A stretch of DNA of 64,000 nt from Fidelibacterota bacterium (GTDB lineage Bacteria > Fidelibacterota > UBA2242), in the NCBI GenBank assembly GCA_041645495.1, contig JBAZPZ010000001.1, forward strand, positions 9,730 to 73,729. The letters are read 5' to 3'. The notes beneath the pieces are model-generated. The model was not told the DNA's origin, made no database searches, and saw nothing but the letters and a program-made list of their open reading frames with translations. Positions within the stretch are counted from its first letter, which is position 1. Each line of letters starts with the position of its first letter. This document shows, piece by piece, positions 28,995-57,760 of the stretch. The translations under genes and the position numbers were made by a program.

Positions 28995-30185
28995 TTATTC
29001 CAATATTTCGGTTACGACGCCGGCACCGACCGTCCGTCCGCCTTCTCGAATCGCAAACCGCAACTCTTTTTCCATCGCGATCTCCGTGATCAATTCTACC
29101 GTCACGTTCACATTGTCACCCGGCATCACCATCTCGATGCCTTCCGGCAAGGTCACGACGCCCGTCACGTCGGTCGTCCGAAAGTAAAACTGCGGACGAT
29201 ATCCCTTGAAAAACGGCGTGTGGCGGCCGCCTTCTTCCTTCGTCAATACATAAACTTTACCCAAGAATTTCTTGTGGGGCGTGATGCTCTTCGGCGCCGC
29301 GACTACCATGCCTCTCTGCAGCCAATCTTTTTCGATTCCGCGCAGAAGCAAACCAACATTGTCCCCCGCTTGGCCGCGATCCAACAACTTGCGGAACATT
29401 TCAACGCCCGTCACGACCGTCTTCTTGTAGCCGCCCAGACCGATAATCTCAACTTCTTCACCAACCTTGATGACGCCCCGGTCGATTCTGCCCGTGCCTA
29501 CCGTTCCGCGTCCCGTGATCGAAAAGACGTCTTCGATCGGCATCAGAAACGGCTTCTCGATGTCGCGCTTCGGTTCCGGTATGAAACTGTCAACCGCATC
29601 GATCAATTCCATGATGCACTTCGTCTTCTCCGGATCATCCGGATTGTTCAACGCTTCCAATGCGCTTCCCCGAATGATCGGCGTTGTGTCGCCCGGAAAA
29701 TTGTACTTGTTCAGCAAGTCCCTTAATTCCATCTCCACCAAATCTATCAATTCAGGATCATCTACCAGATCTATCTTGTTCAAAAATACTACCATGCTCG
29801 GTACATTCACCTGGCGTGCCAATAATACGTGCTCTCGCGTCTGGGGCATCGGGCCGTCAAATGCCGACACAACCAATATCGCGCCGTCCATCTGTGCCGC
29901 ACCCGTAATCATGTTCTTGATGTAATCCGCGTGTCCCGGACAATCCACGTGCGCATAATGCCGCTTCGGCGACTCGTATTCCACGTGCGCCGTATTGATC
30001 GTGATCCCGCGCGCTTTCTCTTCCGGCGCGTTGTCAATACTGTCAAATGTCCGTACATCCGCAAATCCTTGCTTATGCAAAACAAATGTCATCGCCGCCG
30101 TCAACGTCGTCTTCCCGTGATCCACGTGGCCGATCGTCCCTACGTTTACATGCGGTTTCGTCCGCTTAAATTGTTGCTTTGCCAT
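28995..30185 (-). CDS. tuf: Elongation factor Tu, str-operon copy (tufA position)
   Basis: The 396-aa ORF has the GTPase G1-G4 motifs and is identical in sequence to the copy at 44543..45733. Confidence 0.97.
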
Positions 30186-30202
30186 CGGTGCTCCTTAAGT
30201 TT
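28996..30202. repeat. 1207-bp perfect direct repeat, copy A (tuf plus 17 bp of 5' leader)
   Basis: The sequence matches 44544..45750 exactly, judged from identical ORFs in all frames and identical flanks. The flanking sequences diverge at 28995/44543 and at 30203/45751. Confidence 0.85.
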
Positions 30203-32291
30203 TAAAAAAGTCCGGCACGAAGCCTCTGGTTTTCTCGATAATCGTTTTCTGAACCTTCTTATCACAAAAATCGTGATTCGAAAATTTCATCGTAAAATTC
30301 GCTCTGCCCTGTGTGATCGAGCGAAGATCTGTTGCATAACCGAACATCTCTCTGAGCGGCGTGGATGCGTCCACGATGTTGATGTTTCCGCGCTTGTTCA
30401 TACCCGTCACGTTGGCGCGCCGGGAGTTTAAATCGTTGATGACGTCGCCGAGATAAGTATCCGGAACGGTGACTTCGAGCGACATAATCGGTTCCAAAAT
30501 CGCCGGTTCGGTTTTCATCAGCGCCTCTTCCAGCGCCATCGAACCTGCGACTTCAAACGCCAGTTCGGTGGATTCGTCTTCGCGGTATTCGCCGCCGGTG
30601 ATCGTCACTTTGAGTTTCTGCAGCGGGTAACCGGCTAAGATTCCGCTTTTCAATCTATTGATAACGCCGCGCTTGATGGCGGGTATAAATTCTTTGGGTA
30701 AAACGTCGCCATTGAGTCGGTTCTCGACGATCGCGTCCTGAATGTTTCCGGCGGGTTCGACGAGCAATTCAACTTTGGCATACTGTCCTTTTCCGGTCGT
30801 TTGGCGATCGAACGTTGCGATTCCGACGGCAGATTTGGTAACGGTTTCACGATACGAAACCTGTGGTTTGCCGATATGCGCCTTGACGTTGAATTCGCGA
30901 AGCAGACGATCGATAAAAATTTCCAGATGAAGTTCACCCATTCCGGAAATGATTGTCTGTCCGCTCTCTTCGTCTATCTCAACGCGGAAGGTCGGATCTT
31001 CCGTCACCAATTTTTCCAGAGAAGCCTGTAATTGTTCCGAATCGGCTTTGCTTTTCGGCTCGATGGAAACGTGAACGACCGGTTCCGGAAAGACCATGGA
31101 TTCGAGGATGATCGGATTCTTGGAGTCACAAAGCGTATGACCCGTGATGCTGTCTTTCAAGCCGACGACCGCGCCGATTTCTCCCACAGTCAGCACGTCC
31201 TTTTCTTCGCGTTTGTTCGCGTGCATTAGCAAAAGTTTGGAAATCCGCTCTTTTTTCTGGATCGTCGAGTTGTAAACCAGCGTGCCTTTTTCGAGCATTC
31301 CCGAATAGACGCGGATAAAACTCAGACGTCCGACGTGCGGATCGGTCATGATTTTAAAAATGAGTGCCGAAAACGGATCGTCGATACTGGCCTTGCGCTC
31401 GATCGGCGTACCTTTCAGATTTATTCCCTGAATTGGCGGGACGTCAAAAGGTGAAGGCAGGTATTCCACGACGGCATTTAACAGCGGCTGAACGCCTTTG
31501 TTTTTGAAGGCGGAGCCACAAAAAACCGGAACGATCTTGTTTTGGAGCGTCCCGGTACGAATCGCGCGTCGGATTTCTTCGGGCTTAATCTCTTCGCCGT
31601 TCAGATATTTGGCAAAGACGACGTCGTCAAAGTTCGCGGCTTCTTCGATAAGAAGGCCTCTATATTTTTCCGCTTCTTCTTTTAAATCGTTCGGGATTTC
31701 GCCGTCGTAATAAACGGTTCCGAGTCCGTTGTGATCGTAAACGACGCTTTTTTTCTCGATGAGGTCGATGACGCCGTTGAACAGTTCGCCGGTTCCCAGC
31801 GGCAGATTGATCGCCACCGGTTTAGCTTTCAGCCGGTCTTTCATCATTTCGAGAACATTGAAAAAGTCCGCACCGGCTCTGTCCATTTTGTTGACAAACG
31901 CGATGCGCGGAATATGGTATTTGTCGGCTTGTCTCCAGACGGTTTCGCTCTGCGGTTCGACGCCGCCGACGGCGCAAAAGACGGCGATAGCGCCATCCAG
32001 AACTCTCAGCGAGCGTTCGACTTCCGCGGTAAAATCCACGTGTCCCGGCGTATCGATAATATTGATGCGATGTTCGTCCCAGTAACAGGTCGTTGCCGCT
32101 GAAGTAATCGTAATGCCGCGTTCTTTTTCCTGCGCCATCCAATCCATCGTCGCCGAGCCATCATGAACTTCGCCCATCCGATGAACCTTGCCGGTATAAA
32201 AGAGAATTCTCTCAGTCGTAGTGGTCTTTCCGGCGTCGATGTGCGCCATGATACCAATATTCCTTACGTTGCTGAGAGTTTCCTGCTTCAC
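30195..32291 (-). CDS. fusA: Elongation factor G
   Basis: 698 aa; EF-G. Confidence 0.97.
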
Positions 32292-44542: not shown

Positions 44543-45733
44543 CTATTCCAATATTTCGGTTACGACGCCGGCACCGACCGTCCGTCCGCCTTCTCGAATC
44601 GCAAACCGCAACTCTTTTTCCATCGCGATCTCCGTGATCAATTCTACCGTCACGTTCACATTGTCACCCGGCATCACCATCTCGATGCCTTCCGGCAAGG
44701 TCACGACGCCCGTCACGTCGGTCGTCCGAAAGTAAAACTGCGGACGATATCCCTTGAAAAACGGCGTGTGGCGGCCGCCTTCTTCCTTCGTCAATACATA
44801 AACTTTACCCAAGAATTTCTTGTGGGGCGTGATGCTCTTCGGCGCCGCGACTACCATGCCTCTCTGCAGCCAATCTTTTTCGATTCCGCGCAGAAGCAAA
44901 CCAACATTGTCCCCCGCTTGGCCGCGATCCAACAACTTGCGGAACATTTCAACGCCCGTCACGACCGTCTTCTTGTAGCCGCCCAGACCGATAATCTCAA
45001 CTTCTTCACCAACCTTGATGACGCCCCGGTCGATTCTGCCCGTGCCTACCGTTCCGCGTCCCGTGATCGAAAAGACGTCTTCGATCGGCATCAGAAACGG
45101 CTTCTCGATGTCGCGCTTCGGTTCCGGTATGAAACTGTCAACCGCATCGATCAATTCCATGATGCACTTCGTCTTCTCCGGATCATCCGGATTGTTCAAC
45201 GCTTCCAATGCGCTTCCCCGAATGATCGGCGTTGTGTCGCCCGGAAAATTGTACTTGTTCAGCAAGTCCCTTAATTCCATCTCCACCAAATCTATCAATT
45301 CAGGATCATCTACCAGATCTATCTTGTTCAAAAATACTACCATGCTCGGTACATTCACCTGGCGTGCCAATAATACGTGCTCTCGCGTCTGGGGCATCGG
45401 GCCGTCAAATGCCGACACAACCAATATCGCGCCGTCCATCTGTGCCGCACCCGTAATCATGTTCTTGATGTAATCCGCGTGTCCCGGACAATCCACGTGC
45501 GCATAATGCCGCTTCGGCGACTCGTATTCCACGTGCGCCGTATTGATCGTGATCCCGCGCGCTTTCTCTTCCGGCGCGTTGTCAATACTGTCAAATGTCC
45601 GTACATCCGCAAATCCTTGCTTATGCAAAACAAATGTCATCGCCGCCGTCAACGTCGTCTTCCCGTGATCCACGTGGCCGATCGTCCCTACGTTTACATG
45701 CGGTTTCGTCCGCTTAAATTGTTGCTTTGCCAT
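44543..45733 (-). CDS. tuf: Elongation factor Tu, second copy (tufB position, downstream of the tRNA array)
   Basis: The 396-aa ORF is 100% identical to the 28995..30185 copy. The antisense frames are identical too, so the nucleotide sequences are identical. Confidence 0.97.
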
Positions 45734-45750
45734 CGGTGCTCCTTAAGTTT
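44544..45750. repeat. 1207-bp perfect direct repeat, copy B
   Basis: See copy A; the offset between copies is 15548 bp. Confidence 0.85.
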
Positions 45751-45799
45751 TTATTTCTTCTCATTTTTTCTATTTGACGATTACTCCAAGTTTTCCATG

Positions 45800-45872
<73 letters not shown>

Positions 45873-45906
45873 ATTCAGTCTCAAATTCTCTCGTTTTCAA
45901 TGACCT

Positions 45907-45948
45907 TCCCGAAGCCTCGGGACGCTCTACCAACTGAGCTACTTGGGC
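45907..45948 (-). pseudogene. Truncated duplicate of the tRNA-Thr(GGT) 5' half (26 nt identical), followed by a GC-rich tetraloop hairpin; not a functional tRNA
   Basis: On the minus strand, GCCCAAGTAGCTCAGTTGGTAGAGCG is identical to nt 1-26 of thrT. It is followed by TCCCGAGGCTTCGGGA (a 6-bp stem with a GGCT loop). There is no anticodon arm or T-arm. Confidence 0.7.
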
Positions 45949-46027
45949 AACGAGTTCCAAGTTTTGGGTTTTGGATTCGGATAAAATCAGTGAACCTAAT
46001 CAACCATTCAACCCAATTTCTCAATCA

Positions 46028-46370: not shown

Positions 46371-46443
46371 CGAGCCACCAGTAGGATTTGAACCCACGAC
46401 CCGCTGATTACAAATCAGCTGCTCTACCAACTGAGCTATGGTG
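46371..46443 (-). tRNA. thrU: tRNA-Thr (anticodon TGT)
   Basis: The acceptor is GCCACCA/TGGTGGC, the anticodon loop is TTTGTAA, and the length is 73 nt. Confidence 0.85.
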
Positions 46444-46740
46444 GCATTCATTTGTCAAACATTTCACCCGTCAGTTCCATCGGTCGCATCTCAACTGTCC
46501 GCGCTTTCCGGGCTACGGTAGCTATCAGTCTGCATTTAAAAAAGCCACGAAATTTACAAATAATTTTTCCCATAACAACAATATTTTTTCACTTCAAGAT
46601 CATTTTTTTGAGGACTTAACCGTCTCCAAACAATTTTTCAGTTCATTTTACTGATTACTGTCTATCGCTGAATCTTGATAATCCGCACGCCTTTGCTTTG
46701 ATGCCGCTGTCTATGCGTTTGAGAATATTTTCGATGGTTA

Positions 46741-47223
46741 TTAAAACGATTCCTTCCAAATCAAACGTGCCAGGAAATTGGCTATGTGTCCTTTAGTTTC
46801 GATTCCACGGTAATCATCGCGAAATCCGACTTGAATATTGACTGCATTACTCTGGTCTGGAGTGATGGAACCGATATACGTTGGGCTGAGCGAGTGCCAA
46901 AAGTTCAGATAGAATAATCGTTCGGATTGTCGCCCGCAAATCATTTTATCTGTCCTCAAACCGAGTTGGCGGAACAGTTCGCTGAACAGAATTCCGGTAC
47001 AGAAAACCTTGCTTTGTTTGCAGGTTTTGTACAAATCCTTGTAAGAACGGGAAAGTTTTGTTTTGACTTCATCCAGACGAAAGTCGGATTGATCGAAAAC
47101 AAATGCGAGCGCTTTTTCGTATCCCATCACTCCCAGCGGTTCAAGTTCAAACAATGCCCGAGTTCGATCAGTCTCGGTTTTCAGACTTTCAATCATCGTC
47201 CGAAAAAGAAGCCCGATTTCCAT
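46741..47223 (-). CDS. Hypothetical 160-aa protein; a standalone paralogue of the C-terminal domain of the REC-fusion protein at 50111..51652
   Basis: The motifs 'MGYEKALAFVF', 'LFYLNFWHSLSP', 'NIQ' and 'FLARLIWKESF' align with 'MPYEKMLATLF', 'RYFYQNLWHSIFP', 'NIQ' and 'FLARLIWNESFT' of the 513-aa protein. Confidence 0.6.
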   Translation of the reverse strand: MEIGLLFRTMIESLKTETDRTRALFELEPLGVMGYEKALAFVFDQSDFRLDEVKTKLSRSYKDLYKTCKQSKVFCTGILFSELFRQLGLRTDKMICGRQSERLFYLNFWHSLSPTYIGSITPDQSNAVNIQVGFRDDYRGIETKGHIANFLARLIWKESF

Positions 47224-47241
47224 GCTTAAACCCGATTAACC

Positions 47242-49542
47242 TTACCCGAGTCTTACATCTTCCATCTGGATTTGATAATACTCAAGAAACCGTCTCGCTT
47301 TATCCGCAAGAAACGCCCATTCTGATTCGAACTCTTCGAAGCGTTCTTCGAGAATCTTTAGCGCGATTGCTGTTGCGACGATATCTTTTGCATTTACCAA
47401 ACGCTCATGGATTTCATGGATGGCGGTCAGAACTGTTGCCGTGTCAATTTTTGAAATAACTAGCAGATCATTATTCAACTCCCAGTGCCCGTCGGCTTTC
47501 TGAGACTGAATAAGTCTCATCATTTCCTCGTGGTTTTCATTAACAATTGAAGGAGTAGGAGATGCCATTCGTTTTCTTGAAAATTTTGGTATATCGGGTG
47601 TATGTGAGCACAGATTACTTATCGCGTCGAAAGCGACATCGTGGTCTTCTATTACTAATGGACGATAAACAGATTCCATTTTTTTTCTAATGAATGTGGG
47701 CATTTTTGTTTCCTCGACTGCTCCATAGTTTTTTGTCAGTTCTATGGGAACTCGGCGGAGTTCAGGTTGAGTCGAGGCAACTGCGGCTTTACGCCTCTCG
47801 ATGCCAATAAAACTAGTTAGCGAATTGACTAAATTGTACTGACGTCCAAGTTCTATAATTTGTTGGTTGATCATCTTATCCGTTCTATCAGATTGGCTTG
47901 AGCCTCGATGCGCAGAAGCAGGATTTTCCTCCAAATCCCGGACTAGTCGGCGCGCCATCAAAGTCGGAACCGCTGAGTGTTCTTGGACAGTATCCGGTGA
48001 GATGGTGAACTGCCAGTCAAAAGTACATTCTCCGGATTTTGCCTGCAGATGAACATCAGCCTCAATAAGTTCGTTCAATCTGGCAAACATGGTTAGGCGG
48101 TCACCTGAGAAAAGATTGTCGATCTGAGTTGGTGTCTGGCGTATAGGTTCCATCGGGGACCAATCAAGTTTGATAGATTCAAAATGAGGCGAACGGGTTC
48201 GTTGAAAATGGCGCAGGATTTTCGGTTCAATGCGTTCACCCGGAAAAATAAACTCAGCGAAATCACCGGTGGATCGTGCCAACCCTTTAAGGAAATATTG
48301 ATTCACACCGCGACCGATACCGACCGGAAACAGATGACATGAATTCCGATATTTATTGACAAGACTGATGACTTCCGGCTCATTTCCGATCTCACCATCG
48401 GTAATCAGCAAGATCGCTTTGGATGCGTCGCTTTCCTTCTTCAATATATGCTCCAAGGGGGAGAATACTTCTGTGCCGCCCAGGTCCGCCTTAATACTCT
48501 GTGTATGCGAAATTGCCATATCGAGATTTTTCTGAGTATAATCAACCGCTGAATGAAACAATGACCGATAGGAACTCCCGAACTCGATCACTTGGAACCG
48601 GTCACCTTCCCGCAAAGAATGCAGACAGATTTGAAGCGCGTTTTGTGCTTGAGCGATACTTTCGCCAATCATCGACCCGGAACAATCGAGCAGAAAAATG
48701 ACTGTCCGGTTTGCTTTGAGCAGTACGTCGATCTGAGGGGTAAAATTCATCATCGCGACGAAGCCGGAATCGACGTCTTTCGCTAAAACGACAGAAGGCT
48801 CCTCTGGATCCTTTTTTCTGAGAACCAACACAAAATCCTGATTCAACTGAGTCGTTTCAGTTCCAAGAGAAATGACGGCTTCGTTATGAATCGTTTCAAT
48901 ACATATTGGATGTGAGGGTGACTGAAAGGACTGGAATTTATCTGCCTGCCGGACATGAATCTTCAGTTTCAAACCATAAGGCAATTCGCCAGCCACTGTT
49001 GGCGGGGATATATGGTCGATGAGCGCCGGGTCGCTTTCCGAAAGGGTTTTAGTCGGGAGATAACGCGGTGATATAGTTGTTGGCAAGAAAAAGCGAATGC
49101 CATCTCCTTCGGAATCTAATTCCATGACGTATTTGATTTTAACGAGCACAGATTGTTTCGGTAACAAATTGCCGATGCTGGCGGTGAAAATGTTCGGCCT
49201 GTCCTGGTCCAGTAAAAATGCACCCCAGCCTTTGGAAATTGATTCGTCGTATTTTTCAAATGCCGCTTCTTTCTCATCGACTTTTGCGACGATAGTCTTA
49301 TCGTCGGTTTCCACATCGAAACCGCAGACGGCGGCAGATTCGGGAAGTGGAAACGAATACACTGCTTCAATCGCTTTTTCTTCGATGTTCTGATAGCGCT
49401 GCTGTACCTCGACTTCTGCGGAAAAGTCGTCGATATGCGCTTCGACACTGACACCGCGCAGGGGAACTGGTGTCGCGTTATCTGCCTGAAACACGCCGAA
49501 ATACTTTTCATCGTTGGAAAGATGAGAACTCTTATTCAACAC
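47242..49542 (-). CDS. Cytoplasmic VIT (vault/inter-alpha-trypsin) plus von Willebrand factor A domain protein, with a ~300-aa C-terminal region of unknown function
   Basis: The 766-aa ORF has no signal peptide. It has an N-terminal VIT pattern, and a vWA domain with the MIDAS motif 'LLDCSGSM' and 'LITDGE'. Confidence 0.7.
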   Translation of the reverse strand: MLNKSSHLSNDEKYFGVFQADNATPVPLRGVSVEAHIDDFSAEVEVQQRYQNIEEKAIEAVYSFPLPESAAVCGFDVETDDKTIVAKVDEKEAAFEKYDESISKGWGAFLLDQDRPNIFTASIGNLLPKQSVLVKIKYVMELDSEGDGIRFFLPTTISPRYLPTKTLSESDPALIDHISPPTVAGELPYGLKLKIHVRQADKFQSFQSPSHPICIETIHNEAVISLGTETTQLNQDFVLVLRKKDPEEPSVVLAKDVDSGFVAMMNFTPQIDVLLKANRTVIFLLDCSGSMIGESIAQAQNALQICLHSLREGDRFQVIEFGSSYRSLFHSAVDYTQKNLDMAISHTQSIKADLGGTEVFSPLEHILKKESDASKAILLITDGEIGNEPEVISLVNKYRNSCHLFPVGIGRGVNQYFLKGLARSTGDFAEFIFPGERIEPKILRHFQRTRSPHFESIKLDWSPMEPIRQTPTQIDNLFSGDRLTMFARLNELIEADVHLQAKSGECTFDWQFTISPDTVQEHSAVPTLMARRLVRDLEENPASAHRGSSQSDRTDKMINQQIIELGRQYNLVNSLTSFIGIERRKAAVASTQPELRRVPIELTKNYGAVEETKMPTFIRKKMESVYRPLVIEDHDVAFDAISNLCSHTPDIPKFSRKRMASPTPSIVNENHEEMMRLIQSQKADGHWELNNDLLVISKIDTATVLTAIHEIHERLVNAKDIVATAIALKILEERFEEFESEWAFLADKARRFLEYYQIQMEDVRLG

Positions 49543-49993
49543 GGTTTTTCTCCTTTATTGGGTTTATAAATATTATTCCTAATTGATTCTTGAGATAGGT
49601 TGAGATTTCAATCAACACCGACGGCGCTGGGACTTTGACAGGGTGCGAAAATTCCAGTGTGAGTCCTTCGGTGATGCGGACACGCGTGACGATTTCCCGC
49701 GTCGGAGTTTCGATAATTGGTTCCGGCTGTTCCGAATTCAAATGCACGGCCTGTCGGAGCAAAATTCCCTGCTTCTGAAGATCGCGCAAGCGGGCGATCT
49801 GCGTCAAATGCTCGTCTGTGTAATAACTACCCCGTCCAAGTCCAACCGGGGGTGACATCAAGGCGTTCTGCACGTAAAAACGCACGGTGCGGCGACTGAC
49901 TCCCGCCAGCTCCGCCAATTCTCCGATCTTGTACTGTTTTTCTTCTTTCATGGCTTGAATATAACACTTGACTGTCGCATTGTCAAGTGTCAT
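49532..49993 (-). CDS. MerR-family transcriptional regulator
   Basis: The 153-aa ORF has the N-terminal HTH 'YKIGELAELAGVSRRTVRFY'. It overlaps the start of the VIT-vWA gene by 11 nt. Confidence 0.7.
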   Translation of the reverse strand: MTLDNATVKCYIQAMKEEKQYKIGELAELAGVSRRTVRFYVQNALMSPPVGLGRGSYYTDEHLTQIARLRDLQKQGILLRQAVHLNSEQPEPIIETPTREIVTRVRITEGLTLEFSHPVKVPAPSVLIEISTYLKNQLGIIFINPIKEKNRVE

Positions 49994-50110
49994 ATTAAAA
50001 ATATTTATTTGTGGATACTGGCTTAGGAGAATTCTTAGTGAGGATATTTAATTGTACTGGCGGTTTGTCCAGATCGCTGGTATTGATGAGTTTGAGAATA
50101 CCGTTGTCGG

Positions 50111-51652
50111 TTACGTAAACGATTCGTTCCAAATCAAACGTGCCAGAAAATAGGGAAACGAATTGTCCTGTATATTTACCCGTTCGAATTTAACAAGCAT
50201 CAGAATCGAATCTTTTCCTTCCATCGGATCTTTCACACATAGCTTAGCAGGGAAAATGCTGTGCCAAAGATTTTGATAGAAATATCTCTTTGCGTTTTGG
50301 GCGACAATATTTTTTAAATCCGGATCGGATTCTCTTCTCAAAGAGTTACCAATACCCTCAAGCAATTGATTGAAAAAGTTACCGTCCGGATAAATTTTAT
50401 TATCTTCTAAAAAACGTTTTAAATCACAATATGATTGCAGAATGGCTTTTCTGATTTGGTTATCATCAAGAACTTCAACAGGTTCAAAGAGCGTAGCCAA
50501 CATTTTTTCATAAGGCATTCTTTGGTTGAATTCAAGATTGAACCAGGCGCGCATCGCAATCATAAAAAAGAACGCTGCGTCCTTCGGACACAAATCGTCC
50601 GCGATCTGGCCATGAGACGACCAGTTTCGCAATAATTTCATCTGCCGCTCATAGTTGTTCTTGAAACGGTATTCAATGTCAAAGTTTGATAAATGCTCAA
50701 TAAAATGACCGGCGCTCATTTCCCATTCGGCGGATAGTTCTTTGATGAACTGATAATAGAGTGACTCAGCGTTTTCCGGCGGATTCAGCGGGAAAAAATT
50801 CTCCAGCTTTGACAGATAATCGCGGATATATTCCTTTTCAATTTTTGAATCTGTTGTTCTGTTGAAAAGAATCCACTCAGCGATTTCTTTTTCCAGCCGG
50901 TCTTTTAAATAACGGCAGGCATTGATGATTCCCCTTCTCAGTGCAATGTACGGAAAGTGCGCTCCGCGTTTAGTCAGGCGATTGTCGAGCCAGGCATGGA
51001 AATTCGCGACGTCGCTCTTGTGAATCGAAGGTGCCAATTCGGATAAAGCATCACAAAATTTTTCCTCAAAACGGTCATAAAGGTCTTTATTGGTTTCTCC
51101 GGCTTTCATCTTCCGAATGACTTCGGTTAGAAACTCATTTATCCGCTGAATATTGCCCATCGTCTGATATTCCTGCAATATTTCATCAAACGCCTCGTTG
51201 TCCGGGTCAGAAAGCAACTCTCTGATTTTTGCGATAATACCTATAAAATGCTCGGGATTTTTTGTTTCCAGCAGACGGTCTTTATAGGTTTTGACCCGGT
51301 AACCATTGGAAGCATGTCCTGTCAGGAAAACAATCCGGTCGTTATGAAATCCTTGCCGTATTAGCTGCTGATAGAGATAAAATCCGGACTCCTCGAGAAA
51401 CTCTGTATTTTTTCGCCCAAATTCATGGGCAATTTTTCTCACCAATTCCGTTTCCGGAAAATCTTTCAGATTAAGGTCGAATACGACAAGATCATATTCC
51501 GAAGTCGCTCTATGAATAGCGGCGTAACAGTCATCAAAATTGCGGGGAATATCCAGCCGGTTTACTTCGTCGGTGAAAAAACCGCTTTCCTGAAAGAGGA
51601 TACGGTCTCTTTGATCACCCTGCGGGGCGTCTTCGATCCAGAGAATGTTCAT
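50111..51652 (-). CDS. Response-regulator receiver (REC) domain protein fused to a ~400-aa domain of unknown function
   Basis: The N-terminus 'MNILWIEDA...DLVVFDLNLKD' is a CheY-like acidic pocket and phospho-acceptor Asp pattern. Its start overlaps the upstream kinase gene in an ATGA arrangement. Its C-terminus is paralogous to the 160-aa protein. Confidence 0.6.
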   Translation of the reverse strand: MNILWIEDAPQGDQRDRILFQESGFFTDEVNRLDIPRNFDDCYAAIHRATSEYDLVVFDLNLKDFPETELVRKIAHEFGRKNTEFLEESGFYLYQQLIRQGFHNDRIVFLTGHASNGYRVKTYKDRLLETKNPEHFIGIIAKIRELLSDPDNEAFDEILQEYQTMGNIQRINEFLTEVIRKMKAGETNKDLYDRFEEKFCDALSELAPSIHKSDVANFHAWLDNRLTKRGAHFPYIALRRGIINACRYLKDRLEKEIAEWILFNRTTDSKIEKEYIRDYLSKLENFFPLNPPENAESLYYQFIKELSAEWEMSAGHFIEHLSNFDIEYRFKNNYERQMKLLRNWSSHGQIADDLCPKDAAFFFMIAMRAWFNLEFNQRMPYEKMLATLFEPVEVLDDNQIRKAILQSYCDLKRFLEDNKIYPDGNFFNQLLEGIGNSLRRESDPDLKNIVAQNAKRYFYQNLWHSIFPAKLCVKDPMEGKDSILMLVKFERVNIQDNSFPYFLARLIWNESFT

Positions 51653-54153
51653 TGCTCTTTCTCCTTGTTGAGTTGTTTTGCCAGAAGCTCAAAATCCAAT
51701 TCCGTTTTTGGTTTATATGGCACGAAAATATCTTTCAGAAAACGAAACGTCACCTGGAATTTTCCGTTTTCTTCACGCCAGGTAAAGACTTTGTCTTTTT
51801 CCCGAATGTCATTCAGCATTTCAAGGTCGTTTTGAATTCCCTCCAACCCTTTTCCAGTACTAATCGATACGTTTTGTGTGTAGGGATTTTCCCACTCGCA
51901 TACCAGGAACGTCCGGTTTTCGATTTCCTCTTCGTGAAATCTAACATCAATCCAGATATCTTGTTCAATATCACGGTATTTCAGCGCATTGAACAGCAAT
52001 TCCTGAAAATAGCCCTGAAGCAAGGCTTCCGAGTAGCCGTCACGCCGCAGACGAATCGCATTCCAGAGCGGACTCAGCGTACAATCAATCCTGCCAATGT
52101 TGGCACTCGCCCATTCGATGGCACTGCGGTTGGGATTGAAGAAGACGTTCTCTTCAAAATCCACTCTTAGCTGGTCTAAAGTTGTTCCCCGCCGGGCGCA
52201 GATTTGCGTGCGAATTGGGTCTAATTTCCGGTAATCCGCATTCAGGAAGCGGGCGACGATGCGTTGAACAGAACTATTCAGGATTTCCTTTATGCTGATT
52301 GCCTTTTCCGTCATGTCTTCTGGCAGACGATCACCGCGGATCAACTGCTGAAATTCCGCTGGATTGCCGGTATTACGTGCCTGCAGAAGCAAACCCTGAT
52401 TTCGAATAATCGTCTCGGCGAGGTAAGCGTCGGTCAATATCCGAGCATCGCGACGGAATTCGATGTGACTCTTGAGGCGATTGGCAACCTCGTAAATCGC
52501 ATTCGGATAAAGCGTATTCGCTAACGTATGCGAATACTGTTGGATCATGCGCTCTTTTTCGCGACGATGATGCTCTGCTTGCCGTGCTAATTCTTCTTTT
52601 TTTTCATCCTCATCAGACCTTCTCTTTTCCTCCGTAATCTGAAAAATTCGTTCATTCAGTTTCACTAAAATACCGATATATAATTTAGACTTTAGAATAA
52701 CATCTGAAGTGTTCGCACTTTTAGGTTTTTGATATTCGTATATAGTATTGTCCACCCCATCCGGTAGAACTTCATTTCCAGATCGATCAAGTTCTCCCGC
52801 TGGTTCAAGCTTAGACGGAATTATTGAGTCGCCGAAGAAATTTTCCAGAATGAGTGATTTAATATTAAGCGTATAGAGTTCTCGTCCCTTGTTACCAAAG
52901 TGCTGAAGATACTCATCCAGGATAAAATCCAAATTTTGGCTGAATTTATATTGTGGGAATTTCAACTCTAATAGAAAATCCAGTTCTCCAAAATCTTCGG
53001 TTGGTTTTAACTCACCACCAGGGTTAACTAAATATTTAATAATGCTGTCTTCATCTCCGAGTCCTTGAACTTCCAAAGATGAAAAACCGAATATTTTGTT
53101 GCATATCGAATAGAACTGTTCAAGCGAAGCGAACAAACAAGAGTCACCAATGGCTCCAATTATATCAGGTAATATTTGTGGCAATGGTGAGATAAAATTT
53201 TCCGAAAATAAAGCAACCTCAATAGATAAAAAATCTTTAGGCTTATTAGGTATATTGCTGATAAAAGCCTTCAAATTATTTTCATAGAGATCTTTTTCTC
53301 TGTTTCGCAAATAAATGTATGAAAGGTAAGCAGGAACAGCCCACTTGACATACATCATATAAACTTGGGGCATACTTTCTGCTACCTTTAAATCTTTTAG
53401 AAAGGATTGCAATTGCAGAAAATCACTTAAGGCTAAGTTGAAATTTTCTGCTTTCAAATAGCACTTGGCTCGATTATAGAGAACTTCTGGTTTAAATTTA
53501 TCCTTTAAAATTATTGAAAAATCTTTACCGGCTTTTTCATACTCATCTAAAATAAAAAATAATTTTGCTCTTTTTTCATAGGAAATTGAATCAGGTTCAA
53601 TTTCAATAGCTTTTGTGTAGGCTTCCACCGCCTTGCTATATTCTCCTCTAATTCTATTTTGATCTCCAAGTTTTATCCAACCGGATTTCAATTTTGGATC
53701 AATTTTTACAGCATTAGAAAAATCATTTAATATCTCATTATCTGGCATTTCCATCGGATCCAGCAAAGCATTTCTGACACTTCCTCGAAAGTAATAGTAT
53801 TTGGCAACATTCGGATTCAATTCTATTGCCTTATTAAAACTATTTATCATACAGCCATATTCATCCTTATCCCTCCAAAGCCAAAACAAATCCTTTGGTC
53901 TATCACACCAAAGGATCAATCCTTTTAAAAAGTAATATTCTGCATAATTGGGATTTAAACTGATAGCCTGATCTATATCTCCATGCGCCTCATCAAACAT
54001 TCCTTTATCTTTGTAAGCAATCGCCCTCATGTAATAGTTGTCAGGATTTTTACTGTCTTTTTCAATGAGTTTGCTCAATTCCTCAATTGAAAGATTTTTC
54101 ATGCCATCACTTTTCATTTTTTTATCTCCGCCATTGGATTGCAATTTTCCCAC
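51649..54153 (-). CDS. Cytoplasmic TPR-repeat protein fused to an atypical histidine-kinase-like (GHKL) ATPase domain
   Basis: The 834-aa ORF has ~400 aa of N-terminal TPR repeats and a coiled coil. It has a candidate H-box 'QQYSHTLANTLY', an N-box 'ELLFNALKY' and a G-box 'STGKGLEG'. No TM segments are present. The TPR-encoding half is AT-rich. Confidence 0.55.
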   Translation of the reverse strand: MGKLQSNGGDKKMKSDGMKNLSIEELSKLIEKDSKNPDNYYMRAIAYKDKGMFDEAHGDIDQAISLNPNYAEYYFLKGLILWCDRPKDLFWLWRDKDEYGCMINSFNKAIELNPNVAKYYYFRGSVRNALLDPMEMPDNEILNDFSNAVKIDPKLKSGWIKLGDQNRIRGEYSKAVEAYTKAIEIEPDSISYEKRAKLFFILDEYEKAGKDFSIILKDKFKPEVLYNRAKCYLKAENFNLALSDFLQLQSFLKDLKVAESMPQVYMMYVKWAVPAYLSYIYLRNREKDLYENNLKAFISNIPNKPKDFLSIEVALFSENFISPLPQILPDIIGAIGDSCLFASLEQFYSICNKIFGFSSLEVQGLGDEDSIIKYLVNPGGELKPTEDFGELDFLLELKFPQYKFSQNLDFILDEYLQHFGNKGRELYTLNIKSLILENFFGDSIIPSKLEPAGELDRSGNEVLPDGVDNTIYEYQKPKSANTSDVILKSKLYIGILVKLNERIFQITEEKRRSDEDEKKEELARQAEHHRREKERMIQQYSHTLANTLYPNAIYEVANRLKSHIEFRRDARILTDAYLAETIIRNQGLLLQARNTGNPAEFQQLIRGDRLPEDMTEKAISIKEILNSSVQRIVARFLNADYRKLDPIRTQICARRGTTLDQLRVDFEENVFFNPNRSAIEWASANIGRIDCTLSPLWNAIRLRRDGYSEALLQGYFQELLFNALKYRDIEQDIWIDVRFHEEEIENRTFLVCEWENPYTQNVSISTGKGLEGIQNDLEMLNDIREKDKVFTWREENGKFQVTFRFLKDIFVPYKPKTELDFELLAKQLNKEKEQ

Positions 54154-54320
54154 CTAACCAGCACAACACCGACTTCGAAAGATGTGATGCCGGCACTTAA
54201 TGTAATCCTTACCCCAAATAAATAGTTTATAATCAAAGCAAAATAGAGAAAACCGAAAATTCTGAGTTCTCCCGACCAGGTCGTTTCTGTCTGTTCTGTT
54301 TCAATTTTCAGGATTTTCAT
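54114..54320 (-). CDS. Possible small membrane protein (68 aa) upstream of the TPR-kinase gene; could be spurious
   Basis: It has one hydrophobic segment. It overlaps the annotated kinase start by 40 nt, but does not overlap if the kinase starts at the internal Met codons at 54117 or 54102. Confidence 0.2.
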   Translation of the reverse strand: MKILKIETEQTETTWSGELRIFGFLYFALIINYLFGVRITLSAGITSFEVGVVLVRWENCNPMAEIKK

Positions 54321-54540
54321 GTTTTCTTCTTTTTGCTACTTTTGCTTCATGTTTTCAAATGTCGATCTCACTTATGCAATTAATAAACCAAAACCAAATT
54401 TCATGTCCCTGACGTACAATTTTCCCGATTCGCCCGATAGAAAAAATGAAATGTAATGGTTATATCCAAGAAGTCGGTAGTTCTGAACCGGTAAAAATCT
54501 TTACTTTCATCTGTCAAAATTTTTTCAACCCAAATTGTCT

Positions 54541-55701
54541 TTATCTTTCCTCCACTATCTTCCCAATTTCCTCCACCGGTAGTGCTATAACCTGCTCACT
54601 AACCGGATAGGTTTCTTTACCGGGATAGACGACGAAACCACGTTTGCATTCAAGGTCAGCGAAGCCGGTATGGAAACCACGCGAGAGTTGCGGGGTGGAA
54701 GTGAATTTAACTTCAATAGCGATCCGTTCGCCGGATGATTTAACGATGACCAAATCTATTTCAACTCCGGTGTTGGTACGGTAAAAATATTTTTCCCAAT
54801 GAGCAGGTAGAAGATTGATAATTTGCTCGATAACGAATCCTTCCCATGAATGACAAAGAATTGGATGTCCATAAAGTTCATCAGACGTGGACAAATTGAG
54901 AAGCGCATGAAGCAAACCGGTATCGCGAAAATAAATCTTCGGAGACTTAATTAGTCGCTTTTTCAAATTGAGATGATATGGTTGAATCTGCCGAACAACA
55001 AATGCGCTTTCCAGAATATTCAAATAATGAACTGCGGTCGGTTGTGAAATTCCGAGACTGGAAGCGATTTGGCTACCATTCCACAGTTGTCCATGCGTGT
55101 GGGCAATCATTTGCCAGAATTTACGAAGCTGAAGAGCAGGAATTCGAATACCTAACTGAGGAATATCTCTTTCTAAAAAAGTTCGGATATAAGCGCTGCG
55201 CCAAATCAGACTATTAGAATCTGAATCCGCCAGAAAGCTATCAGGCAACCCTCCGCGAAACCATAATCTTTGGATAGAATCGGTTTGATTACCGATTTCT
55301 TCCGTCTGAAACGACGGTAATTCATGATAGATAATCCGGCCGGCTAAACTTTCGGAAGATTGTTTTAGCAGGGCGGGCGAAGCCGAACCAAGAATGAGGA
55401 AACGTCCCGGAACCCGATTTTGGTCAACGAGCGTGCGGAGAATTGCGAAGAGTTCAGGAAATTTCTGGACCTCATCAATAATCACGAGCGAATTTTGATA
55501 TTGGTTCAAATAGAGTTCCGGATCCGTAAGTTTGGCGAAATCCGACGGTAATTCTAAGTCAAGGTAGCAAGCGCCAGTGTAATTTTTGAAAATTTTGCGT
55601 GCCAAAGTTGTCTTTCCAACCTGCCGGGCGCCAAGGATTCCCACGACCGGGAACTGTTTGAGAGAATCCAACACGATGTTTTGTAGTTTACGCTGTATCA
55701 T
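54541..55701 (-). CDS. AAA+ ATPase with a DUF4143 C-terminal domain (AAA_14/DUF4143 family)
   Basis: The 386-aa ORF has the Walker A motif 'GARQVGKTTL'. Its architecture is typical of the DUF4143 ATPases common in variable regions. Confidence 0.7.
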   Translation of the reverse strand: MIQRKLQNIVLDSLKQFPVVGILGARQVGKTTLARKIFKNYTGACYLDLELPSDFAKLTDPELYLNQYQNSLVIIDEVQKFPELFAILRTLVDQNRVPGRFLILGSASPALLKQSSESLAGRIIYHELPSFQTEEIGNQTDSIQRLWFRGGLPDSFLADSDSNSLIWRSAYIRTFLERDIPQLGIRIPALQLRKFWQMIAHTHGQLWNGSQIASSLGISQPTAVHYLNILESAFVVRQIQPYHLNLKKRLIKSPKIYFRDTGLLHALLNLSTSDELYGHPILCHSWEGFVIEQIINLLPAHWEKYFYRTNTGVEIDLVIVKSSGERIAIEVKFTSTPQLSRGFHTGFADLECKRGFVVYPGKETYPVSEQVIALPVEEIGKIVEER

Positions 55702-56299: not shown

Positions 56300-57760
56300 T
56301 TAATTTCCTGTCATTCCCAGTTTTCTTAATCTTGCCCGGAAGGTTGCTGACGGAATGTTCAGTAATTGCGCCGCGGCGCCTGCATTGCCATTGGTCTGTT
56401 TGAGCGCCGCGCGGTAATAGTCCGGAATTAATCCATTATCGAAATCGATTCCCTCGGCAGGAATGACAATTCCCGTAGGTGAATCCGTCAGTTCGACGAT
56501 GTGCAAATGTTCGGCGGTTATTTCTTCGCCGGGATAGACGAACGCGGCGGAGATGGAACTTTTCAACTGCCGGACATTTCCAGGCCAATGATAGCACTGA
56601 ATCTTGGCAATTGCCGACTGTGTCAGGCTTTTGCGCTTGTCCTGCAGGTGATTGAGCAAATCCACGAGGTGTTGGGTGATCAATATTCTGTCTTCGCCGC
56701 GTTCGCGCAAAGGCGGAAGATAAATTTCCGTCTGAACCAACCGAAAGAACAGGTCTTTGCGGAATTGACGGTCTTTGACCAATTGACGAAGGTCGCGATT
56801 GGTAGCAGATATGATACGAACGTCCACCTTTTCTTCTTTTCCACCGACGACCTGAATCGTTCCTTGGTCCAAAAAGCGGAGCAGTTTGACCTGCATATCC
56901 GGTGGCAGGTCGCCGATTTCATCGAGGAAAATGGAACCACCGTCGGCGAGTTTGAATTTGCCTTCTTTATCCGAAATTGCACCGGTAAAACTGCCTTTTT
57001 TGTGTCCGAAAAACTCGCTCTCAAACAACTGCGGACTGATCGCTCCACAATTGATTTGGATGAAAGGCTGTTGGTTACGCAGGCTGGTAAAATGAATCGC
57101 GCTGGCGACAAGCTCTTTGCCGACGCCGGTCTCACCGCTGATAAAAATCGGCAGATCGCTTTCGGCAAACAGGCGAATTTTCTCTTTAACATTTCGGATA
57201 GCTGCAGATTCGCCGATGATCGCATCCAAACTGGTTGAAACCTGCTGGCGAAGCAGTTTGTTTTCGCGGGAAAGTTGGGTTAACGCGGCTTTCGCTTCGC
57301 TGACGTTTTGGATTTTCGGAAAGTCATCTAAGTTAAAATTGATTTCTGAGAGGCCGGTCTCGCGGTGGATTTGAATCAATTTTGCATTGATGACGCCGCC
57401 CTGTCGCAGAAAAATCCAGCAGGCGTGCATGGTTGGCGTCCCGGACGTGACGGAAATGGTAAATTTTGCATTCGAGTTCTCTTTGATGATCGTCTTGACT
57501 GCCTGATACATTGCTGGATAAACAGTGTTATAGTCAGTTGGATTGGCGGAAAGCGCTGGTTGATAACGAACCTGCAAAGTGGGAAAATTTAGACGACAAT
57601 ATTCCAGAATGGCAGAAGCTGGTTTTAAATAGGATTCGTCATTGTACAGCAGATAGAGGCGATCGAAAACGCGCTGATGCAGAGCGGCGATGATCGCGCC
57701 GGGCTTTTCGGGCAACTGGCAGTCATTGTTACCAACGAAGGATAGAAGGACACGATTCAT
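56300..57760 (-). CDS. RtcR-like sigma-54-dependent transcriptional activator (N-terminal CARF-like domain, AAA+ sigma-54 interaction domain, Fis-type HTH)
   Basis: The 486-aa ORF has the GAFTGA-type motif 'GSFTGA' and the Walker A 'GETGVGKE'. The N-terminal 'KFTISVTSGTPTMHACWIFL' is similar to E. coli RtcR 'HITTGTHVAQICWFLL'. The C-terminal HTH is 'AAAQLLNIPSATFRARLRKLG'. Confidence 0.7.
   Translation of the reverse strand: MNRVLLSFVGNNDCQLPEKPGAIIAALHQRVFDRLYLLYNDESYLKPASAILEYCRLNFPTLQVRYQPALSANPTDYNTVYPAMYQAVKTIIKENSNAKFTISVTSGTPTMHACWIFLRQGGVINAKLIQIHRETGLSEINFNLDDFPKIQNVSEAKAALTQLSRENKLLRQQVSTSLDAIIGESAAIRNVKEKIRLFAESDLPIFISGETGVGKELVASAIHFTSLRNQQPFIQINCGAISPQLFESEFFGHKKGSFTGAISDKEGKFKLADGGSIFLDEIGDLPPDMQVKLLRFLDQGTIQVVGGKEEKVDVRIISATNRDLRQLVKDRQFRKDLFFRLVQTEIYLPPLRERGEDRILITQHLVDLLNHLQDKRKSLTQSAIAKIQCYHWPGNVRQLKSSISAAFVYPGEEITAEHLHIVELTDSPTGIVIPAEGIDFDNGLIPDYYRAALKQTNGNAGAAAQLLNIPSATFRARLRKLGMTGN

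Follow-up and report, generated by a model that had tools for sequence, protein, structure and literature searches.

The question raised by this locus is whether a small open reading frame (ORF) beside a tRNA cluster encodes a stand-alone version of a domain that is also found fused to a receiver domain. The fused version is part of a 513-aa protein encoded elsewhere in the window, by which we mean the whole stretch of 64,000 nucleotides that was analyzed. A reading made from the sequence alone had proposed that the small protein and the C-terminal domain of the fusion are paralogues produced by a segmental duplication. It took a domain present both alone and fused to a receiver to be an effector or adaptor module with a regulated variant. 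The genes needed to follow the argument are listed below.

46372-46445, minus strand: tRNA-Thr(tgt), the first gene of a tRNA cluster that bounds a variable region
46741-47223, minus strand: the 160-aa ORF, with an ATG start and a TAA stop
47242-49542, minus strand: VIT + vWA protein of 766 aa, whose best homologue outside the population is only 44% identical
49532-49993, minus strand: MerR-family HTH protein, overlapping the vWA gene
50111-51652, minus strand: the 513-aa fusion, a receiver domain with a helical insert followed by an all-helical C-terminal half
51649-54153, minus strand: 834-aa TPR protein, a conserved partner, whose stop codon overlaps the start codon of the fusion gene
56300-57760, minus strand: RtcR-like activator with CARF, sigma54-AAA+ and HTH domains (PADLOC RtcR_PspF2, E 6e-128)

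The ATG of the 160-aa ORF lies 18 nt after the stop codon of the VIT-vWA gene, and tRNA-Thr(tgt) follows about 296-298 nt downstream of the ORF. The product of the ORF matched nothing in Pfam, NCBIfam or PADLOC, and the sole protein cluster containing its sequence comes from the same population as the window.

Similarity between the small ORF and the fusion protein

We found that residues 22-160 of the small ORF align with residues 368-512 of the fusion (BLASTP), with 48 identities in 148 columns (32%; E 6e-17). This is significant similarity, and it bears out the proposed paralogy at the protein level. The shared blocks M(G/P)YEK.LA..F, FY.N.WHS..P and FLARLIW(K/N)ESF are in register, as had been described. 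The shared NIQ is coincidental, since AVNIQV of the small ORF aligns opposite SILMLV of the fusion. The common ending at the stop codon is exact for the small ORF (...ESF*), and the fusion has one residue more (...ESFT*).

Nucleotide similarity between the two genes does run past the stop codon, but for only about 30 nt. It takes the form of a gapless direct repeat of 69 nt, with copies that are 81% identical and 3373 nt apart.

46713-46781, minus strand: repeat copy A, comprising the final 13 codons of the small ORF, the stop codon and ~30 nt of 3' flank
50086-50154, minus strand: repeat copy B, the P0011-type tail of the fusion (LARLIWNESFT; P0011 is described below), the stop codon and ~25 nt of flank

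The repeat begins with 38 coding nt, 35 of them identical, and continues through the stop codon into ~30 nt of 3' flank that includes TATTCTCAAAC. Its sole difference within the shared ten-residue motif is a non-synonymous K/N change. The 30-mer CTGGCACGTTTGATTTGGAASGAATCGTTT is present exactly twice in the window, with 0 occurrences expected from shuffles. Over the remaining ~400 nt of the shared domain, we detected no nucleotide similarity between the small ORF and the fusion gene.

Two possible functions of the 69-nt patch were considered and rejected. A functional RNA was not indicated by any Rfam family or by the folding z-scores (-1.0, +0.9 and +0.4). A sigma54 promoter was suggested by a TGGCACG element, and its -12 GC element is missing; matches to the sigma54 consensus over the whole window are at chance level (21 vs 20.2 expected).

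The small ORF is collinear with the end of an intact gene in a related genome

The closest relative of the small ORF is not the resident fusion. P0011, a full-length family member of 506 aa, is encoded on a related Neomarinimicrobiota contig (L006) and has the C-terminus ...DEVKTKLSRSYMDLYKTCK...FYLNFWH...DDYRGIETKGHIANFLARLIWKESFT. Residues 22-160 of the small ORF align without gaps to residues 367-505 of P0011 at 75% amino acid identity, compared to 25-32% for every other family member. In a single alignment of ~1.56 kb, bases 1426-2938 of L006 match positions 47160-45612 of the window at 86% nucleotide identity. This alignment contains codons 22-160 of the ORF, the stop codon, the spacer of about 298 nt (89%), four tRNAs (96-100%) and the start of tuf. 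The intact P0011 gene is followed by genes for tRNA-Thr, tRNA-Tyr, tRNA-Gly and tRNA-Thr, as in the window (ARAGORN), and the homology between the two contigs ends sharply at 47160. The small ORF thus has two parts.

46744-47160, minus strand: codons 22-160, the putative in-place 3' remnant, corresponding to P0011 residues 367-505
47161-47223, minus strand: codons 1-21 (MEIGLLFRTMIESLKTETDRT), upstream of the homology boundary

Codons 22-160 are therefore collinear with the 3' part and the downstream flank of an intact orthologue, and the searches made found no separate conserved gene of this kind elsewhere, as expected of a gene remnant. Because this collinearity with the intact L006 gene extends from the remnant into its downstream spacer, the remnant is part of the chromosome and not of an incoming element. 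We conclude that the 160-aa ORF is probably a leftover of an older, P0011-type receiver/HEPN-like allele, namely its 3' third, which was stranded at a locus rebuilt by recombination. The 32% protein similarity to the fusion would then be that of two diverged alleles and not that of a local duplication. The proposed segmental duplication holds for a short segment, the gene end with its downstream sequence. It does not hold for the small ORF as a whole, which is not a duplicate of the C-terminal domain of the resident fusion but sits at the ancestral position of a different family member, to which it is 75% (protein) and 86% (DNA) identical.

Similarity upstream of 47160 was no better than that of shuffled sequences. 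A local alignment of codons 1-21 with the P0011 gene scored 17, compared to a shuffle mean of 16.6, and a weak FFFMIAM-like match found within these codons by MAFFT was also not significant. We therefore regard codons 1-21, including the ATG, as junction sequence, and the start codon of the small ORF appears to have been supplied by chance. The same shuffle comparison gave no significant indication that the remnant reaches upstream of 47160, into the 21 codons or the 3' end of the vWA gene. Readthrough from the vWA gene was considered and set aside: the two frames are equal, yet two TAA stops lie between them. A resemblance of the vWA tail QIQMEDVRLG to QxQMKLLRNW of the family was judged to be chance, and the tail region of the window's vWA gene fits what we take to be native VIT-vWA C-termini.

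A metagenome scan with the single ORF as query found nothing, and a scan with the two-sequence alignment found only contig L025, which is 98.6% identical to L006. The comparison set thus holds one independent P0011-type lineage (L006/L025). In L025 (552-2074), the insertion of 2 nt at codon 254 puts the P0011-type gene out of frame. Barring an error of assembly, intact and disrupted P0011-type alleles would coexist in close populations. We also looked elsewhere in the window for other remnants of the old allele (its N-terminal part, the end of its TPR partner) and found none.

The window has two other repeats near the tRNA cluster or tuf. In the first, 27 nt of the 5' part of the tRNA-Thr(ggt) gene are repeated without mismatch 76 nt upstream of the gene (45923-45949 vs 45847-45873; a longer match of 41 nt is 85% identical). 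Either a duplicated tRNA or a past insertion event may have left this copy. A stretch of 146 nt at or just upstream of the tuf start is found twice (~30058-30203 and 45606-45751; 100% identical, as judged via L004), which indicates that the window has a second tuf copy at a distance of about 15 kb.

The resident operon is a mosaic of diverged alleles

The locus lies within a variable region of ~11 kb between tRNA-Thr and housekeeping genes. We compared the 3' ends of five genes and found that the fusion gene follows P0004 (L001) and P0006 (L007) up to the codons for FPYF. Beyond FPYF it is of the P0011 type: LARLIWNESFT, the stop codon and TAACCGAC...TATTCTCAAAC, after which unrelated sequence runs into the MerR gene. 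Orthologues of the fusion at 83-85% identity have other ends (FLGRLILNDAFGSQL and FLGKLIFNEAFVIH), and the tails of close orthologues read FLGRLILNDAF (P0003) and FLGKLIFNEAF (P0004).

Sliding identity along the operon gave a consistent picture. The closest sequence is L025 from 52180 to 51970 (78-88%), L001 from 51940 to 50770 (76-98%), L007 from 50770 to 50170 (mostly 81-93%, with a dip to 68% at 50500-50411), and L025 again from 50170 to 50081 (70-80%). The nearest relative of the operon therefore changes at about 51960, 50760 and 50160. The last change is in repeat copy B, where the gene switches from the L007/L001 type to the L025/L006 type, and the five-way alignment and sliding identity together place this breakpoint at about 50154-50147. 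In the 69-nt patch itself, copy A, copy B and L006 are roughly equidistant from one another (five-way alignment).

P0006 is also a mosaic, P0011-like over its first 240 residues and P0003-like from there on. Because the window operon and P0006 are independent mosaics, it is a habit of the family to recombine its diverged alleles, and the breakpoints fall in conserved motifs. The P0011-type tail of the resident gene appears to be one more recombined segment. Base composition also varies within the operon. The region 52500-54500, over the N-terminal TPR part of the 834-aa gene, has a GC content of 33-36% vs about 47% around it. Neither L001 nor L007 has a nucleotide counterpart of this part; their homology begins at 52560. 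The sensor half of the TPR partner may thus be exchangeable as well.

An imported gene pair lies between the repeat copies

The sequence between the remnant and repeat copy B was absent from all related loci examined.

47161-50085, minus strand: segment between remnant and repeat, with a promoter-like site, the MerR gene, the VIT-vWA gene and the junction

The overlapping MerR and VIT-vWA genes recur as a pair in a distant contig (L024), without a third gene and without the 69-nt repeat. Because the pair is absent from related loci, is found in distant L024, and has its nearest vWA homologue at only 44% identity, we regard it as an imported two-gene module. In L024 (1440-7409) the pair is near a Peptidase_C14 (caspase-like) gene and an AAA_15/21 ATPase gene, which hints that the MerR-vWA module itself perhaps belongs to conflict-type neighborhoods. 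In the window, a near-consensus sigma70 site (49958-49986, minus strand; TTGACA, 17 nt, TG-TATATT; 11 of 12 matches) is located inside the annotated 5' end of the MerR gene. The Met at codon 15 (MKEEKQYKIGELA...) is probably where MerR really begins.

Direct repeats flanking a segment of 3.37 kb that is missing from L006, together with a MerR-VIT/vWA pair that is portable and found in distant genomes, could also be explained by a site-specific cassette. The 69-nt repeats would then be the attL and attR sites of an element (MerR, VIT-vWA and the small ORF) that targets the 3' ends of family genes and brings a replacement gene end. We consider such an element highly unlikely: the genes of 46.4-57.8 kb include no integrase or recombinase, identity between the repeats is only 81%, and the MerR-vWA pair in L024 has neither the third gene nor such a repeat.

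Stand-alone versions of the domain do not recur

We searched 1.84 billion protein representatives with a profile of the shared domain (E ≤ 0.001) and obtained 190 cluster representatives. In almost all of them the domain is at the C-terminus of a protein of 450-540 aa. The short matches begin at an internal Met of the conserved FFFMIAMR helix or slightly upstream of it, and five of them were checked: P0047, P0033, P0063, P0048 and the window ORF itself. Three are cut by contig ends (L010, L026, L027): P0047 is read from base 17 of a 650-nt contig, P0033, on a contig of 698 nt, begins at base 20 after an in-frame stop, and the reading frame of P0063 is open to the start of its contig. P0048 comes from a full-length gene on L008 that has been broken into parts of 322 and 172 aa by the frameshift of a 4-nt deletion.

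The split in L008 (2691-4174 and 4190-4615) is due to a deletion in a run of TTTATTTA, at the helix where the small ORF of the window begins. The split gene is followed by csm2 (type III-A CRISPR-Cas), and the same split is present in contigs of two sequencing runs.

With tblastn, a second copy of the domain was found in none of the fetched loci except in the window's own population, and there was no conserved stand-alone domain in the 1.84 billion representatives or in 20 distinct related contigs. Because the other short matches checked are artefacts and other loci have no second copies, the combination of a solo and a fused domain is not a recurrent design. The effector or adaptor pattern that had been expected from the window was thus not found among the 190 representatives or the related loci, and the window's own small ORF is without the R-N-x3-H motif described below.

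The mosaic nature of the family, with its breakpoints at conserved motifs, raises another explanation. The fragment could be an orphan C-terminal cassette, a silent module available for recombination with the expressed gene, whose C-terminal domain it would change, as in the Rhs/CdiA toxin orphans. The fragment and the expressed gene share a near-identical 3' anchor, the fragment starts near the conserved MRAWF helix, and its C-terminal domain is of a type unlike the expressed one. A swap would need a second crossover, and there is no nucleotide homology on the 5' side for it; because the repeats are direct, a single crossover at the 3' anchor deletes the cassette. In addition, no cognate partner gene lies downstream, where the next feature is tRNA-Thr, and orphan arrays were absent from all other loci examined. 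For these reasons we think an orphan cassette very unlikely.

Coding state of the remnant

The frame of the 160-aa ORF is open throughout, and the residues of this region that are invariant in the family (R22, E36, L39, Y61, H110, I155 and F160) are all kept. The dN/dS of the remnant vs P0011 is 0.30 (dS 0.50), only mildly higher than the 0.19 of an intact pair (the fusion and P0004) over the same region; being pairwise, the estimate covers both the branch of P0011, which is constrained, and that of the window, and cannot isolate the latter. The spacer beside the remnant has only two indel events in ~300 nt, so the lack of a frameshift in the 417 nt of the remnant is not significant. We looked for signs of decay in the remnant (stops, frameshifts, dN/dS near 1) and found none. 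The intact frame, the kept residues and the dN/dS fit a young remnant or constraint on the P0011 branch only; they also fit a retained function.

The small ORF has no receiver domain, and the motif R-x4-6-H is absent from all its 160 residues. It lacks the receiver and the putative catalytic motif because the shared region begins ~20 residues past that motif. The first helices of the helical domain are missing as well. Taken with the comparisons above, this suggests that the remnant probably has no independent function, and it may be co-transcribed with the MerR and vWA genes. That it does something is, in our judgment, doubtful.

Several of these properties are those expected if a local segmental duplication had made a stand-alone paralogue, an unregulated effector or adaptor beside the receiver-regulated version: significant paralogy, an intact frame with all conserved residues of the region, a dN/dS of 0.30, operon-like spacing after the vWA gene, and a promoter-like site upstream of MerR that could drive transcription. 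We consider this origin quite unlikely because the ORF is far closer to P0011 than to the resident gene, has no DNA similarity to the latter outside the 69-nt patch, occupies the ancestral position of a full-length gene, and is missing R-N-x3-H and the first helices of the domain, and because the solo architecture did not recur in the searches.

It is also possible, and in our view unlikely, that the fragment has been retained as a catalytically dead module co-transcribed with MerR and VIT-vWA. Such a module would either (a) modulate the receiver/HEPN-like protein by binding it at a dimer interface, as a decoy or antitoxin-like partner, or (b) act as a reservoir from which recombination switches the C-terminal domain of the effector, and it would be part of an undescribed RtcR-controlled two-component RNA-targeting system.

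Two histories that would leave a stranded gene end

If the ORF is the end of an older allele, a full-length P0011-type gene would once have occupied the site beside the tRNA-Thr cluster, and everything upstream of codon ~367 would have been replaced as diverged alleles of the operon for the TPR and receiver/HEPN-like proteins recombined at the locus. The order that would result is the present one: an operon with a P0011-type tail, the MerR and VIT-vWA cassette, and the old gene from codon ~367 onward with its own 69 nt.

We can envision two ways of reaching this order. In history (a), the cassette would have been inserted downstream of an intact P0011-type gene, with a flanking duplication of ~450 bp of the gene end. 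The upstream copy would then have been overwritten from ~51960 to ~50155 by homologous recombination with DNA of the present-fusion type (02-type), ending in the 69-nt tail. In history (b), a donor would already have carried the 02-type gene, the P0011-type tail and MerR-vWA. A donor fragment anchored by homology in the TPR gene would then have been joined illegitimately at codon 367 of the resident gene. Both histories fit the data, including the equidistance of copy A, copy B and L006, and under either one the 69-nt repeat would be a recombination scar.

The parent family: a divergent receiver fused to a HEPN-like domain

The whole 513-aa fusion matched nothing in Pfam, NCBIfam or PADLOC. 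A word-indexed search placed its family in 28 clusters, named only 'hypothetical protein', from Candidatus Neomarinimicrobiota and a few other metagenome-assembled genomes (MAGs). One member, P0008 (523 aa, 47% identical), is labelled Promethearchaeota archaeon; its contig is 4.6 kb long, and either transfer between domains of life or mis-binning could explain the label.

The N-terminus of the fusion has the (beta/alpha)5 fold of receivers. Residues E7-D8, D59 and T111 are invariant in the 28 sequences, and in the window protein K212 follows a strand at 209-211. Pfam Response_reg scored 16.8 bits on the N-terminal 205 aa (E 0.0077), below the gathering score of 30.2. The receiver domain is a divergent one, with a helical insert of ~90 aa. 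In the C-terminal half, R342-N343-x3-H347 is invariant in the 28 members and conforms to the R-x4-6-H pattern of HEPN domains; Foldseek found no significant match of this half in the PDB.

The fusion is always paired with the TPR/kinase-like partner. The C-terminal 310 aa of this partner are conserved in six loci (54-77% identity in four close relatives, 38% in L020), with an invariant His in QQY[ST]HTL and the motifs NAxKY and GKG. These motifs suggest that the domain is histidine-kinase-like; it had no profile match and no match to PDB sequences. An RtcR-like activator gene is upstream of the pair, on the same strand, in seven loci (the window, L001, L011, L014, L017, L019 and L020) from Neomarinimicrobiota, Cloacimonadota and unclassified MAGs.

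Other genes were observed near the pair. Between the RtcR-like and TPR genes of the window there is an AAA_14/DUF4143 ATPase gene (54541-55701; PADLOC candidate PDC-S01, E 4e-96), and a ParE/RHH toxin-antitoxin pair lies at ~55.7-56.3 kb, where L001 has only the RHH gene. In L008 the TPR/fusion pair abuts csm2.

This arrangement suggests how the system might work. The CARF regulator would switch on the operon, the TPR/kinase-like partner would control phosphorylation of D59, and the receiver domain would gate the HEPN-like RNase. The trio of RtcR-like, TPR and receiver/HEPN-like proteins looks like an undescribed CARF-regulated two-component system for RNA targeting. The alleles of the family recombine freely, as is typical of genes involved in conflict or defense. 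The mosaic alleles, the frameshifted copies (L008, L025) and the putative relic fit the turnover usual in conflict genes.

Relation to known systems

The locus resembles gene relics left by allelic replacement or by homology-facilitated illegitimate recombination in variable, defense-type islands beside tRNA genes. It shares with them a collinear 3' fragment with a sharp boundary, foreign genes upstream, a short direct repeat at the junction, a mosaic neighboring gene and a site at a tRNA cluster. It differs in that the window relic keeps a frame of 160 codons with its own ATG and a moderate dN/dS, and no integrase is present. Orphan modules of Rhs and CdiA are similar in having a C-terminal fragment of another type downstream of a full-length gene, and in modular recombination. 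In contrast, the shared sequence in the window is at the 3' end and not at a 5' junction, there is no immunity-like gene, and the fragment is single-copy and does not recur in other loci.

The parent family can be compared with HEPN RNases that are regulated by sensor domains (CARF-HEPN Csm6/Csx1; CBS-HEPN DS-11, PMC13092281). As in those, an all-helical domain with R-N-x3-H is fused to a domain that receives a signal, and the family is found beside a CARF-domain regulator and, in L008, beside csm2. RtcR-like regulators have been described upstream of putative RNA-targeting defense operons (PMC11090510). The CoCoNuT superoperons of that study likewise have an RtcR-like CARF-sigma54 activator upstream, on the same strand, of a putative RNA-targeting operon, and a RelE/ParE-type toxin gene nearby. 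The window operon differs in consisting of a TPR/kinase-like and a receiver/HEPN-like protein and not of McrBC-type components.

We suggest that annotation treat the 160-aa ORF as probably the relic of a gene and mark the repeat as a junction left by recombination; a new solo domain family should be defined from neither of them. Analysis of the ORF uncovered a rare, uncharacterized family (about 190 clusters, formed at 50% identity, in a set of 1.84 billion representatives) that usually follows an RtcR-like CARF-sigma54 activator in Neomarinimicrobiota, Cloacimonadota and unclassified MAGs. This RtcR-associated, receiver/HEPN-like family is a more worthwhile lead than the relic. If the HEPN assignment and control by phosphorylation are true, its members would be phosphorelay-gated RNases under CARF-dependent transcription.
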